This document shows positions 20,972 through 27,260 of a stretch of 64,000 nt of DNA, one piece after another. The stretch lies in sequence record PZ445523.1; one strand, written 5' to 3'. The translations under genes were made by a program, and so were the position numbers. The notes beneath the pieces are model-generated. The model was given only the letters and a program-made list of their open reading frames with translations. It was not told the DNA's origin and did no database searches. Source of the DNA: a phage. Positions within the stretch are counted from its first letter, which is position 1. Every line of letters starts with the position of its first letter.

Positions 20972-22087
20972 ATGGAAAAATTTATGGCAGAGTTTGGACA
21001 AGGATATGTCCAAACGCCATTTTTATCGGAAAGCAATTCAGTAAGATATAAAATAAGCATAGCGGGTTCTTGCCCGCTTTCTACAGCAGGTCCATATGTT
21101 AAATTTCAGGATAATCCTGTCGGAAGTCAAACATTTAGTGCAGGTCTTCATTTAAGAGTTTTTGATCCTTCTACGGGAGCATTAGTTGATAGTAAGTCAT
21201 ATGCTTTTTCTGCTTCAAACAATACAACATCTGCCGCTTTTGTCAGTTTCATGAATTCTTTGTCAAACAATAAACTTGTTGCTATATTAACTAGCGGAAA
21301 GGTTAATTTTCCTCCTGAAGTGGTATCTTGGTTAAGGGAAGCAGGAACTTCAGTTTTTCCATCAGATTCCGTATTGTCAAGATTTGACGTATCATATGCT
21401 GCTTTTTACACTTCTTCTAAAAGAGCTATCGCATTAGAGCATGTTAAACTAAGTAATAGAAAAAGCACAGATGACTATCAAACTATGTTAGATGTTGTAT
21501 TTGATAGTTTAGAAGACGTTGGAGCGACAGGATTTCCAAAAAGAACTTATGAAAGCGTTGAACAATTTATGTCTGCGGTTGGAGGAACTAATAATGAAAT
21601 TGCGCGATTGCCAACTTCAGCTGCTATAAGTAAACTTTCTGACTACAATTTAATTCCTGGTGATGTTCTTTATCTTAAAGCACAGTTATATGCTGATGCT
21701 GATTTACTTGATCTTGGAACTGCAAATATATCTATTCGTTTTTATGATGCATCAAATGGATATATTTCCTCGACCCAAGCTGAGTTTACTGGGCAAGCTG
21801 GGTCTTGGGAATTAAAAGAAGATTATGTAGTTGTTCCTGAAAATGCAGTAGGATTTACGATATATGCACAAAGAACTGCTCAAGCAGGTCAAGGCGGCAT
21901 GAGAAATTTAAGCTTTTCTGAAGTATCAAGAAATGGCGGAATTTCGAAACCTGCTGAATTTGGTGTCAATGGTATTCGTGTTAATTATATCGGTGAATCC
22001 TCTTCACCTCCAGATATAATGGTACTTCCTACACAGGCATCGTCTAAAACTGGTAAAGTGTTTGGGCAGGAATTTAGAGAAGTTTAA
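20972..22087 (+). CDS. 35: long tail fibre hinge protein gp35
   Basis: 371 aa (T4 372); follows gene 34. Confidence 0.9.
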   Translation: MEKFMAEFGQGYVQTPFLSESNSVRYKISIAGSCPLSTAGPYVKFQDNPVGSQTFSAGLHLRVFDPSTGALVDSKSYAFSASNNTTSAAFVSFMNSLSNNKLVAILTSGKVNFPPEVVSWLREAGTSVFPSDSVLSRFDVSYAAFYTSSKRAIALEHVKLSNRKSTDDYQTMLDVVFDSLEDVGATGFPKRTYESVEQFMSAVGGTNNEIARLPTSAAISKLSDYNLIPGDVLYLKAQLYADADLLDLGTANISIRFYDASNGYISSTQAEFTGQAGSWELKEDYVVVPENAVGFTIYAQRTAQAGQGGMRNLSFSEVSRNGGISKPAEFGVNGIRVNYIGESSSPPDIMVLPTQASSKTGKVFGQEFREV

Positions 22088-22149: not shown

Positions 22150-22800
22150 ATGGCTGATTTAAAAGTAGGTTCAACTGTAGGTGGATCTGTCATTTGGCAT
22201 CAAGGAAATTTTCCGTTGAATTCAGCCGGTGACGATGTACTCTACAAATCATTTAAAATATATTCAGAATATAATAAACCACAGGCAGCTGATAATGATT
22301 TCGTTTCTAAATCTACTGGTGGTACTTACACAGGCCCAGTTACTATTAATTATGGTGTAAATAGTTATCTTCAATTAAGTAATAATGAAACCCCCATCCG
22401 AATTCGTTCTGGTGGCGGCACTGGTAATACTCTTGTAGTTGGTGGCTCTTCTGGCGGTATTAGTTTTAGACCAGCAGGTAGTGAAATCACTACTGGACAA
22501 ATTACTATTACGCCAGAAGGTTTGACAACATTTACCAAAGCTGTAACGGCTCCATCTGTAACTGTTACATCTACTCCTTCCGCAGCATCTGATGTTACTC
22601 GTAAAGATTATGTTGATGGAGCAATAAATACTGTTACAGCAAATGCAAACTCTAGGGTATTACGCTCTGGAGACACTATGACAGGAAATTTAACTGCGCC
22701 AAACCTTTTTTCACAGAATCCTGCATCTCAACCTTCACACGTTCCACGATTTGACCAAATCGTAATTAAGGATTCTGTTCAAGATTTCGGCTATTATTAA
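22150..22800 (+). CDS. 36: long tail fibre distal connector gp36
   Basis: 216 aa; own TATAAATA late promoter at 22119-22126. Confidence 0.9.
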
Positions 22801-22808
22801 GAGGACTT

Positions 22809-25754
22809 ATGGCTACTTTAAAACAAATACAATTTAAAAGAAGCAAAACCGCAGGTCAACGTCCTGCTGCTTCAGTATTAGCCGAAGGTGAATTGGCTAT
22901 AAACTTAAAAGATAAAACAATTTTCACAAAAGATGACTCAGGTAGTGTTATAGAATTAGGTTTAAAATATGGAGGAACAATTGATGGTTCTTTAACTGTT
23001 AATGGAAGCATAATTGGAAATTTAACAGGTAACGCTGCAACTGCAACGAAATTAAAAACAGCACGAAAAATTAATGGTATATCCTTTGATGGGTCAAAAG
23101 ATATCACGCTAACTCCATCTGACATAAATGTCAATAGCACAACGTTTATAAAAAATAACGGCGAATTACCTGTTGATGCTAATTTAGATGAGTATGGGCC
23201 TGTTGAAGAATATCTTGGAGTTTGGTCGAAAGCAACTTCAACCAACGCTCAACCAGCAAATAAATTTCCAGAAGAAAATGCTGTAGGTGTTCTAGAAGTA
23301 TTTGTGGCCGGTCAATTTGCTGGTACTCAGAGATATACAACTAGATACGGAAATGTTTATATTCGTTCCTTGACTGCTACATGGAACGGAGTAAACGGTC
23401 CGTGGAGTGCGTGGCGAAATATTCAATCTGGTACTCGTCCACTGTCAACAACGATTGATCTTAATGATCTAGGAGGCGCTGAACACCTTGGTTTGTGGCG
23501 AAATAGTTCAAATTCCATTGCTACCTTTGACAGAAATTTCCCAGAAGAAGGATCGTCCGCTCAAGGACTTTTAGAAGTATATGAAGGTGGAAACTATTCT
23601 CGCACACAGAGATATACGACCAGATTTGGTGTTGTTTATACTCGTTGTCTTGCTGCTGCGTGGGATGCTTCTGCGCCTAAATGGGGACCTTGGCAACAAG
23701 TCGGTAATGTCACACCGGCGACTTTCTATGACGGAGATCTGAATGATTTTAAAATTCCTGGGTTATATAATATTTTAGGCACTGATGCCGTTATTAACTG
23801 TCCTACCGGTGAAGGTTTGCCGACTGTTATTGTTGGTTTGCTGGAAGTTAAACAGCGCGCTTCTGGCGGTGCTATTTTCCAAAAATTTACTACTGCCGGA
23901 ACGGGTTCAACTACTCGCGATCGTATTTTTGAGCGTGCATATACTGGTGGTGCGTGGGGTGCATGGAACGAAGTATATACATCTTATTCCCTGCCAATTA
24001 CTTTGGGTATGGGTGGTATTAAAGCTCAATTAGCGGAGTTAGATTGGCAAACATTTGATTTTGTTCCTGGTAGTATGTTTAGCGTTCCTTTGAACAAAAT
24101 AAAGAACATGCCAGCAAATATGAATTGGGGCACGATTGATGGAAACCTGGTTATGTTTTCCGTTGGTCCTAGCGAACACACTGGCACAGGACGTACTGTT
24201 CAGATTTGGCGCGGCACCGTATCCCAGACAAACTACCGTTATTTTGTCGTTCGTGTATTTGGTAATTCAGGAAATAGAACTTGCACAGTTCGCCGTGTTG
24301 TTCTTGAAGACGGATCACATACTTGGACTGCTCAACAAAACTTTAGGGGATTGCTGAATATCACTGCTGCTGTTAATCTTGGTGCTAATCAGAAAATTTC
24401 ACTTGCTCCAGGAGCATATATTCAAGCCCCTGCTAGCGGTTCTGGTTCTAATACTTACGCAAATCAGAATACTACCATTGCACCATTATATCAGGCCATT
24501 GACGATTCAAATAAAAACCAGTTTGCACCAATTGTTAAACAGAAAAACACTGTAAGTAATATCACCTTTGCCACTGGTATGGCTATAGGTACATCCGAAT
24601 ATAAGATCATTGCTCAGGGTGATTTATCCGCTAATGGAACAGCAGATGGGTTAAAACAATGGACTTTCATGCCGTCAGGTTATTTTAAATCTCCAGGGCG
24701 TGTATATGTTGGTGATGCGTTCCTTAATACAGATGGTAATATTGCCGGTTCAATCTGGAAGAAATATAACAATGCGACAAATTTAGATGCTGCCTTGAAT
24801 ACTCGCGTAGGTAAAGGCGGTGATACGATGACAGGTCGGTTAACAATCAATGCACCTAATGATTCTATTGTATTATCAACAACTGCTAGTAATTCTTTGT
24901 ATATTCGCGGTGACATAGACGGGACTGGTAACTGGTATATTGGCAAGGGTGGTGCTGATAATTCGCTAGCATTTTATAGCTATGCTTCTCAGGCGGCAGT
25001 ACATATCACAAACAATGGTGAGATTGCGTTAAACCCGCAAAATACCGCAATGGTTAACGTTAACCGCGACCGTGTACACATTAACGGTTCTGGATGGATT
25101 GCTAGACAACCGGGTGATTGGGGCAACCAATGGCGAGTAGAAGCTCCATTATTCGTTGATCATGGTTATGTTGGTCAAGATAGTTATTATCCTATTCTTA
25201 AAGCAAGAAGCGTTATAACCAATCAAGGATATAGCACCGCTGTTGACTTTGGTATGCGTCGTATTCCATCACAGTGGGGGCAAGCAATCATTCGTGTCGG
25301 ATCCACGGAGGCTTCTCCTGATGCTGGACACCCACAAGCTGTGTTTGAATTCCATCATGATGGATTCTTTTATACACCAGGAAATGGTAGCTTTAGCGAT
25401 GTGTATATTCGTTCTGACTCCCGTCTCAAGATTAATAAAGAAGAATTAGAATATGGAGCAGTCGAAAAAGTTTGCCGACTGAAAGTTTATATTTACGATA
25501 AAGTTAAGTCTATTAAAGACCGTAGTGTTATTAAACGTGAAGTTGGTATTATTGCTCAGGACCTTGAAAAGGAATTACCGGAAGCTGTATCTAAAGTTGA
25601 AGTTGATGGATCTGATGTTCTGACAATTTCTAACTCTGCTGTGAATGCTCTTTTAATTAAGGCTATTCAGGAAATGAGTGAAGAAATTAAAGAATTGAAA
25701 ACGCCTCTCTTTACTAAAATTGCTCGCAAAATTAGTAAATATTTTAAATTCTAA
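22809..25754 (+). CDS. 37: long tail fibre distal subunit gp37 with C-terminal intramolecular chaperone domain
   Basis: 981 aa; conserved N-terminus [13 protein letters not shown]; C-terminal SDSRLK ... coiled segment typical of autocleaving chaperone domains. Confidence 0.92.
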
Positions 25755-25760
25755 CAACAA

Positions 25761-25780
25761 GGGGGAAATGCCCCCTTTGG
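25761..25780 (+). terminator. hairpin after gene 37 (weak terminator / RNA stability element)
   Basis: GGGGG-AAATG-CCCCC followed by TTTGG; SD for gene 38 follows. Confidence 0.4.
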
Positions 25781-25790
25781 AGTATAAATT

Positions 25791-26573
25791 ATGGCAGTAG
25801 TTGGAGTTCCTGGCTGGATTGGAAGTTCAGCCGTAAATGAAACGGGTCAGCGCTGGATGAGTCAAGCGGCTGGTCAATTAAGATTGGGTGTTCCTTGCTG
25901 GATGAGTCAATTTGCAGGTCGCTCACGAGAAATTATTCACACGCTTGGAGCAGACCATAACTTCAATGGTCAATGGTTCCGAGATAGATGTTTTGAGGCA
26001 GGTAGTGCACCTATAGTGTTTAATATTACAGGTGATTTAGTATCATATTCTAAAGATGTTCCTTTATTCTTCATGTACGGAGATACACCAAATGAATATG
26101 TTCAGTTAAATATACATGGCGTAACGATGTATGGTCGTGGAGGTAATGGTGGTAGCAATAGTCCTGGCTCAGCTGGGGGTCATTGTATTCAAAACGATAT
26201 TGGTGGGAGACTAAGAATTAATAATGGCGGAGCTATTGCAGGCGGCGGTGGCGGCGGTGGCGGCGGATATTATTCTCCTTTTTCACAAATGAGATTGACC
26301 TTTGGCGGTGGTGGCGGTCGTCCTTTTGGTGCGCCAGGCGGATCTATTGATATGCAATCAGGCGCGACTGGTGGTACTATTTCTTCACCTGGCTCAGGAT
26401 CCGTGAATGGTATCTATAATGGTGGAAACGGTGGTGAAGTAGGTTCCGCGGGAGGTAGATGCAATATTCGCGGTCAAGGATCTGAATATGATGGCGGTGC
26501 TGCTGGTTATGCTGTCATAGGGTCCGCTCCAACATGGCAAAATGTTGGAGCAATATATGGTCCAAGAGTATAA
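25791..26573 (+). CDS. 38: receptor-binding adhesin gp38, glycine-rich T2/T6 type
   Basis: 260 aa with several poly-Gly motifs ([27 protein letters not shown]) separated by variable segments. Confidence 0.85.
26241..26268 (+). repeat. GGC/GGT codon repeat encoding poly-Gly within gene 38
   Basis: ggcggcggtggcggcggtggcggcgga. Confidence 0.8.
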
Positions 26574-26603
26574 TGTGAATAAATACCCTTAAAAGGAGGG
26601 TCT

Positions 26604-27260
26604 ATGGCAGCACCTAGAATATCATTTTCGCCCTCTGATATTCTATTTGGTGTTCTAGATCGCTTGTTCAAAGATAATGCTACCGGGAAAGTTCTTGCTT
26701 CCCGGGTAGCTGTCGTAATTCTTTTGTTTATAATGGCGATTGTATGGTATAGGGGAGATAGTTTCTTTGAGTACTATAAGCAATCAAAGTATGAAACATA
26801 CAGTGAAATTATTGAAAAGGAAAGAAATGCACGCTTTGAATCTGTCGCCCTGGAACAACTCCAGATAGTTCATATATCATCTGAGGCAGACTTTAGTGCG
26901 GTGTATTCTTTCCGCCCTAAAAACTTAAACTATTTTGTTGATATTATAGCATACGAAGGAAAATTACCTTCAACAATAAGTGAAAAATCACTTGGAGGAT
27001 ATCCTGTCGATAAAACTATGGATGAATATACAGTTCATTTAAATGGACGTCATTATTATTCCAGCTCAAAATTTGCTTTTTTACCAACTAAAAAGCCTAC
27101 TCCCGAAATAAACTACATGTACAGTTGTCCATATTTTAATTTGGATAATATCTATGCTGGAACGATAACCATGTACTGGTATAGAAATGATCATATAAGT
27201 AATGACCGCCTTGAATCAATATGTGCTCAGGCGGCCAGAATATTAGGAAGGGCTAAATAA
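26604..27260 (+). CDS. t: holin
   Basis: 218 aa, same as T4 T; single N-terminal TM helix and large periplasmic domain. Confidence 0.9.
   Translation: MAAPRISFSPSDILFGVLDRLFKDNATGKVLASRVAVVILLFIMAIVWYRGDSFFEYYKQSKYETYSEIIEKERNARFESVALEQLQIVHISSEADFSAVYSFRPKNLNYFVDIIAYEGKLPSTISEKSLGGYPVDKTMDEYTVHLNGRHYYSSSKFAFLPTKKPTPEINYMYSCPYFNLDNIYAGTITMYWYRNDHISNDRLESICAQAARILGRAK

Follow-up and report, generated by a model that had tools for sequence, protein, structure and literature searches.

The gene 38 locus

The window, that is, the whole 64-kb stretch of DNA that was analysed, contains the gene order g35-g36-g37-g38-t-asiA, which it has in common with T2, T6, RB14 and S16. Gene 35 (20972-22087, encoding gp35 of 371 aa) and gene 36 (22150-22800) are followed by gene 37 (22809-25754, + strand), gene 38 (25791-26573, + strand), the holin gene t (26604-27260; Phage_holin_T, E = 3e-117) and, on the minus strand, asiA. 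The hinge protein gp35 has an above-threshold Pfam match to ILEI (interleukin-like EMT inducer, PF15711; E = 4.8e-8, residues 58-125), a label that is unexpected on a phage fibre connector. No tRNA genes, and no Rfam families at the gathering threshold, were found across the window (1-64000). The best match to the 24-kb region between 16 and 40 kb, with 96.6% identity, is Yersinia phage PYps47T, a value exceeded by no phage record, and none of the phage records searched is more than 98.9% identical in DNA to gene 38; judged by its sequence, the window thus represents a distinct Tequatrovirus isolate carrying an RB14-type adhesin protein.

The product of gene 37 is the distal half-fibre subunit (981 aa), which can be recognized as a T2/T6-type partner of gp38 from its Pfam domains gp37_trimer and Peptidase_S74 and from its identity to the gp37 of relatives (95% with RB14, 96% with KEP10, 79% with T6; over the last ~220 residues all four proteins are the same). 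The Peptidase_S74 module, a putatively cleavable intramolecular chaperone identified by Pfam (gp37 aa 869-927; 25413-25589, + strand), is present in the gp37 of T2, T6 and the window and absent from that of T4, which has the Collar and Phage_fiber domains there. It aligns to residues 87-192 of the S16 gp37 construct (6F45_A, E = 9e-4); this chaperone module is the only part that does so, as no significant sequence match was found between the beta-helix of the gp37 tip and the S16 gp37 tip (6F45).

Gene 38 itself runs from an ATG at 25791 to a TAA at 26573, with a GGAG 8 nt upstream of the start codon. In agreement with the original prediction it encodes a gp38 of 260 aa with several poly-Gly motifs: there are 13 runs of at least 2 Gly, and Gly accounts for 24% of all residues (63/260) and for 37% of those between aa 115 and 244 (48/130), while the products of the adjoining genes contain 4-10% Gly. 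The longest run, 9 Gly at aa 151-159, is encoded by nt 26241-26267; when the gp38 residues were shuffled 20,000 times, a run of at least this length arose only 5 times. Tandem Repeats Finder recognizes in it a perfect 9-bp unit, GGCGGCGGT, repeated 2.9 times at 26241-26266; the (GGC/GGT)n repeat that had been described here is real, but its end had been placed one base too far, at 26268. A second tract, of 5 Gly, is found at 26304-26318.

The GC content of gene 38 is 46%, against 35% (35.4%) for the 64-kb window. Since the non-Gly codons have a GC content of 36.9%, the excess is due to the Gly codons alone and gives no sign of a foreign origin of the gene, which can be ruled out. In a scan of the surroundings of gene 38 for promoters and terminators, no sigma-70 promoters above shuffle expectation were found, a search that is of low relevance to T4-type late genes. 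A short GC-rich hairpin is present in each of the two spacers that flank the gene: the g37-g38 spacer has GGGG-AAATG-CCCCC at 25762-25775, immediately preceding the g38 Shine-Dalgarno sequence, and the g38-t spacer has ACCCTTAAAAGGAGGGT at 26585-26601, which overlaps the Shine-Dalgarno sequence of the holin gene. A role of these hairpins in translational coupling or mRNA stability is possible.

Family and predicted structure of gp38

Two Pfam profiles are matched by gp38 over their entire length: Gp38_N (PF21721, profile 1-40/40) by residues 1-42, with 73.6 bits (E = 1.2e-20), and GP38 (PF05268, profile 1-218/218) by residues 47-260 of 260, with 241.2 bits (E = 1.4e-71), the cut-off being 25 bits in both cases. 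Among proteins of known structure, the sequence matches are the receptor-binding domain (RBD) of PP01 gp38 (9V85, E = 3e-79) and S16 gp38 (6F45 chain D, E = 8e-50, residues 5-257). With 65 homologues as input, AlphaFold2 gave a model with a mean pLDDT of 88.0 and a pTM of 0.79. When this model was compared with the PDB by Foldseek, it superposed only on the same two adhesins, 9V85_C (TMt = 0.88, rmsd 2.3) and 6F45_D (TMq = 0.80, range 0.80-0.83), with no other structure below E = 5; these values refer to a predicted structure, and 6F45 may have been part of the AlphaFold2 training set. The model is that of an attachment domain, a beta-helix and a polyglycine-II (PGII) sandwich, which is the fold predicted for gp38.

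In the alignment that had been proposed to assign the variable segments and the receptor, gp38 is 95% identical to T6 gp38, 53% to T2 gp38 and 50% to S16 gp38; identity to the PP01 RBD is ~66%. A resemblance to adhesin-type gp38 confined to the glycine runs had been named as evidence that would count against this assignment; the similarity is in fact full-length, and includes the Gly-poor N-terminal 114 residues. The features that define the T2/T6/S16 adhesin family and are open to sequence analysis are all present in this locus: the profile, the attachment domain, the alternation of Gly-rich motifs (GRMs) and hypervariable segments (HVSs), the predicted fold, and a gene context that includes an S74-bearing gp37. 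The representative (P0001) of a cluster of 155 members is 97% identical to gp38 and bears the NCBI name 'receptor-recognizing protein [Bacillus cereus]' (PJZ22119.1); this label almost certainly reflects coliphage contamination of a Bacillus assembly.

Three domains can be recognized, all encoded on the + strand. [quoted passage not shown] It is followed by a linker and a central beta-helix domain (aa 43-114; 25917-26132), with strands from E48 to E114 modelled at a pLDDT of ~90; this domain is conserved in 130 homologues and holds 10 of the 13 differences from T6 gp38. In the C-terminal specificity domain (aa 115-244; 26133-26522) Gly-rich motifs alternate with hypervariable segments, as seen in the conservation profile of the same 130 homologues: conservation reaches 90% or more in the Gly motifs, and the stretches that separate them are variable and rich in indels.

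Within the specificity domain, the first motif (GRGGNGG, aa 115-121) is followed by HVS1 (aa 122-128), and then by a beta-helix turn and the 9-Gly run (together aa 129-159). The run itself (26241-26267, + strand) aligns with that of S16 gp38 and is the counterpart of its central PGII helix 3 (151-GGGGGGGG-158). The HVS2 loop (aa 160-171; 26268-26303, + strand) contains Q166 and M167, the equivalents of T6 Q167 and M168, at which PST-type changes extend host range. The second Gly tract belongs to the motif GGGGGRPFG (aa 172-180; 26304-26330, + strand; GGCGGTGGTGGCGGT...), which is the partner of the 9-Gly tract in the duplications and deletions of relatives described below. Then come the HVS3 region (aa 181-210), the motif GGNGGEVG (aa 211-218), HVS4 (aa 219-234), a last motif of 10 residues (aa 235-244) and the conserved C-terminus (aa 245-260). 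Our numbering of the segments agrees with that of Trojet 2011, in which T6 Q167 and M168 are in HVS2 and G208 is in HVS3.

In the crystal structure of the S16 complex (PMC6851490), one gp38 monomer caps the gp37 trimer by means of three helices with conserved tryptophans; the protein forms a five-ring beta-helix, from which two long excursions emerge to build a lattice in which ten polyglycine-II helices are stacked in three layers. Receptor binding is proposed to take place at the distal end, through the hypervariable loops, the site itself being described in that paper as still unknown. By analogy, the C-terminal domain of gp38 would fold as a polyglycine-II 'sandwich', in which the conserved Gly motifs would make up a rigid core and the intervening hypervariable loops would touch the host receptor. 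As the 9-Gly run aligns with helix 3 of S16, the central helix of the lattice, it is probably a structural element of this core rather than a linker. By comparison with identical or nearly identical proteins described in the literature, gp38 would be located at the fibre tip and gp37 would be processed; T6 gp38 amber mutants are morphologically normal and fail to adsorb (Trojet 2011, PMC3157838).

Receptor specificity

The gp38 of the window is identical to that of RB14 and differs from that of T6 at only two residues of the specificity domain, for which reason the nucleoside channel Tsx is the expected receptor. According to Trojet 2011 (PMC3157838), all T6-like adhesins, RB14 included, use Tsx on E. 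coli K-12, and tsx dependence is given for RB14, T6, RB3, RB5, RB6, RB7 and RB27. On Tsx itself, published work assigns the binding of T6 to loops 6 and 7. Several other phages with related genes are known to use Tsx. The tsx dependence of WilhelmHis/Bas35 was genetically complemented (PMC8594841), and its gp38 is 8 substitutions away from that of the window, in the same 90% cluster; KarlGJung and Paracelsus, reported as Tsx phages (PMC13353012), have 96.9% DNA identity to gene 38 of the window; FL04, FL15, FL23 and FL44 are experimentally Tsx-dependent (PMC12032242), and gene 38 of FL44 has 94% DNA identity over nt 87-783. By its set of four HVSs, gp38 can be assigned on sequence grounds to the T6-like, Tsx-specific subgroup. 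Judging from these identical or near-identical proteins, the primary receptor of this phage on E. coli would almost certainly be Tsx. Such a prediction, made from sequence with high confidence, can help in choosing phages for cocktails and in anticipating resistance through loss of tsx.

According to Trojet 2011, PST gains recognition of Yersinia and of OmpA through the changes Q167R, M168I and G208I in T6 gp38. The corresponding residues in gp38 of the window (Q166, M167 and G207) are those of T6 and RB14.

The Q166 codon is at 26286-26288. The substitution Q166R, which is the same as T6 Q167R of PST, recurs in HP3.1, in vB_EcoM-PM123 and in a Shigella flexneri contig (P0130, P0133 and P0134), and Q166L occurs in another member of the cluster; the window has the ancestral Q.

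Glycine-coding tracts as probable sites of rearrangement

The original prediction also suggested that the repeat in gene 38 could promote slippage or recombination. We have compared by DNA alignment gene 38 of the window with those of T6, PYps47T, PYps32T and D5505, and every indel among the closest relatives (PYps47T, PYps32T and D5505) sits in a Gly tract; in T6, which is more distant, one Gly codon is added outside both tracts, after residue 109. PYps32T has 9 additional nt (GGV) at the 3' end of the 9-Gly run, and D5505 lacks one codon of the 5-Gly tract; the PYps15T gene is also 3 nt shorter. In PYps47T (gp38 of 278 aa; L005:301-1137), HVS2 and the adjoining Gly tract are duplicated in an exact tandem repeat of 54 nt (18 aa), whose junctions are within the Gly-coding tracts (aligned to 26241-26318 of the window). 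The authors of that genome described the change only as an insertion; an unequal exchange between the two Gly tracts would be expected to give just such a sequence. Two metagenomic homologues (P0022 and P0023) have the reciprocal change, with aa 151-172 and 152-171, respectively, deleted, and thus lack the 9-Gly run and HVS2.

More drastic changes also fall in these tracts. The annotated gp38 of HP3 (P0129, 187 aa) has a frameshift inside the poly-Gly run, while that of HP3.1 (P0130, 260 aa) is intact; either the repeat was misread in sequencing, or slippage has produced a true null allele. A protein of 303 aa (P0034), encoded by a 25.7-kb contig labelled E. coli, joins the N-terminus and beta-helix of gp38 to a gp37-like C-terminus with Peptidase_S74, the junction being inside the Gly run. 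At a finer scale, more of the synonymous differences from RB14 and KEP10 fall in the two Gly tracts than expected (Fisher p = 0.01 and 0.02), and the third-base pattern of the 9-Gly run takes five different forms in seven close relatives. Finally, in a comparison covering 402 phage records, the homology to more distant gp38 genes breaks off time and again at query nt 323-362 or 458-481 and resumes at nt 444-448; these breakpoints coincide with the first Gly motif (nt 343-363) and with the 9-Gly run (nt 451-477).

The suggestion of a recombinogenic repeat is therefore supported by the indels, duplication, deletions and breakpoints seen in relatives. These observations are consistent with a mechanism in which the repetitive GGC/GGT coding would cause indels, as well as homologous or unequal exchange, to occur preferentially in the Gly motifs, and exchange at these sites would reshuffle the HVS loops. 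That such a process occurs is not a new idea: it was published by Tetart et al. (1998), with experimental reports of crossovers within GRMs.

Alternative interpretations

Since the gene has the same name and position as T4 gene 38, and the label 'distal long tail fiber assembly catalyst' persists for T6-type gp38 in some database records, one could take gp38 for a non-structural chaperone of the T4 type, which would help gp37 to trimerize and be absent from the virion, leaving receptor binding to gp37. This reading is refuted at the sequence level. T4 gp38 is, as the original prediction stated, shorter (183 aa) and devoid of such motifs (5.5% Gly); it has no match to the Pfam GP38 domain, and a comparison of the two proteins revealed no similarity, the best BLASTP alignment covering 12 residues with E = 1.7. 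In the gp37 of the window, moreover, the S74 module is present and the C-terminal domain of the T4 type, with Collar and Phage_fiber, is missing, and the T4 RefSeq note itself calls T2-type gp38 'unrelated'. We consider a T4-type chaperone practically inconceivable, and the gene should be annotated as a receptor-binding adhesin rather than as an 'assembly catalyst'. A less improbable departure from our reading is that gp38 is an adhesin whose main receptor is not Tsx, but OmpA, the LPS core or a Yersinia surface structure, as in variants like PST, in which the three substitutions in T6 gp38 extend recognition to Yersinia and OmpA (Trojet 2011). The nearest relatives over the whole region are phages isolated on Yersinia pseudotuberculosis, RB14 itself plaques on Yersinia at low frequency, and fPS-65, whose gp38 is 4 substitutions away, needs inner-core heptoses of the LPS on Yersinia, a host without a Tsx homologue. 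The last case indicates that alternative receptors on other hosts are possible; a secondary or alternative receptor of this kind does not conflict with the use of Tsx on E. coli. All three PST positions hold T6/RB14 residues in the window, and the protein does not differ at all from RB14 gp38, for which Tsx dependence on E. coli K-12 is reported. It should also be considered that receptor use by T-even phages may depend on LPS, gp37 or other components, and that the use of OmpA by PST requires more than the HVS changes (Trojet 2011, PMC3157838). Overall, a main receptor other than Tsx appears improbable, and we assign a probability of about 93% to the reading that gene 38 of this Tequatrovirus encodes a T2/T6-type receptor-recognizing adhesin with a PGII-sandwich tip, for which Tsx is almost certainly the receptor on E. 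coli.

As for the repeat, poly-Gly is necessarily encoded by GGN codons, and the (GGC/GGT)n tract might have no mutational role at all, being simply the unavoidable coding of a required poly-Gly helix, while the indels of relatives would be errors or neutral noise. The runs vary very little in length (most T6-like representatives have 9 Gly, and 121 of the 124 with a scorable GnRP tract have 5 Gly in that tract), although the pattern used to score Gly-run length missed about half of the sequences and the length distribution is to be taken as qualitative only. The fact that all 19 differences from RB14 are synonymous denotes strong purifying selection on the protein, and, the repeat being difficult to sequence, artefacts could account for the HP3 frameshift, the chimeric P0034 and the deletions in P0022 and P0023. 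While some of the Gly-tract cases could indeed derive from sequencing or assembly, an artefact is unlikely for the in-frame variants found in complete genomes of plaque-purified phages: three independent ones (+9 nt in PYps32T; -3 nt in D5505 and PYps15T; +54 nt in PYps47T) come from such genomes of viable phages. The enrichment of synonymous changes in the tracts, the accumulation of breakpoints to distant gp38 genes at the two sites given above, and the experimental GRM crossovers of Tetart 1998 also speak against a purely passive repeat, which we regard as possible but on the unlikely side. At the other extreme, the tracts at 26241-26267 and 26304-26318 might be a built-in contingency device, in which slippage inside a tract and unequal exchange from one tract to the other would produce, at an appreciable rate, in-frame variants whose central PGII helix is lengthened or shortened or whose HVS2 is doubled or missing, along with the occasional frameshifted null allele. 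If this were true, host-range variants would be present in every clonal lysate, and the Yersinia-isolated PYps32T (+GGV) and PYps47T (with a duplicated HVS2) would be natural instances in which such a variant had been selected. This view goes beyond the published crossovers of GRMs between phages, and would parallel the duplications in T4 gp37 that expand host range (Tetart 1996); we find it doubtful.

Taken together, these results represent a correct annotation of the gene rather than a discovery. They refine the assignment to the T6/RB14 (Tsx) subtype, to which the protein belongs by virtue of a sequence identical to that of a published one; as the protein is identical to a characterised one, nothing is added to the biology of gp38 adhesins. 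Both the identity of the adhesin and the idea of slippage or recombination are already known from earlier work (Riede, Drexler and Henning, 1987-89; Tetart 1998; Trojet 2011; Dunne 2018). A mildly interesting by-product is the comparative evidence that the Gly-coding tracts are where rearrangements cluster in this subgroup, the tandem duplication of HVS2 in a Yersinia phage among them.

Comparison with known gp38 proteins

The closest known protein is gp38 of RB14 (ACP30890.1 / YP_002854582.1), which was found by exact-sequence look-up, and checked against the RB14 genome, to be the identical 260-aa protein; the gene order g36-g37-g38-t-asiA is the same, with a gp37 that is 95% identical. The two genes differ at 19 of 783 nt (RB14 gene 38, L008:3501-4283; 97.6% DNA identity), and 13 of these synonymous differences are in Gly codons. 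The GGC/GGT pattern of the 9-Gly run is displaced by one codon with respect to RB14 (CCTCCTCCA in the window vs CTCCTCCCA in RB14); the loss of one codon at one end of the run and the gain of one at the other would explain this shift more simply than four point changes. The gp38 of T6 (AXN58309.1), the classical Tsx-specific adhesin, is 95% identical; its four HVS loops, its tracts of 9 and 5 Gly and its gene context are those found in the window. It differs by 12 substitutions and by the extra Gly after residue 109; within aa 115-244 the only differences are S165P in HVS2 and D187N in HVS3.

With S16 gp38 (6F45 chain D) and the PP01 gp38 RBD (9V85), the protein has in common the three-domain architecture and the PGII sandwich, as judged from the model (TM 0.80-0.88), and the Trp residues and Gly motifs align. 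The HVS loops, however, are different from those of S16 (50% identity) and of the PP01 RBD (~66%), and the run equivalent to helix 3 of S16 consists of 9 Gly in the window and of 8 in S16 and PP01; PP01 gp38 binds OmpC of O157. The gp38 of T2 (BBC14865.1) is of the same family and architecture, and its gp37 also has the S74 module, but at 53% identity all of its HVSs are different and its run is of 7 Gly; the receptors of T2 are FadL and OmpF. With T4 gp38 (NP_049864.1), an assembly chaperone, there is in common only the name of the gene and its site between g37 and t: in T4 it is gp37 that bears its own receptor-binding tip.
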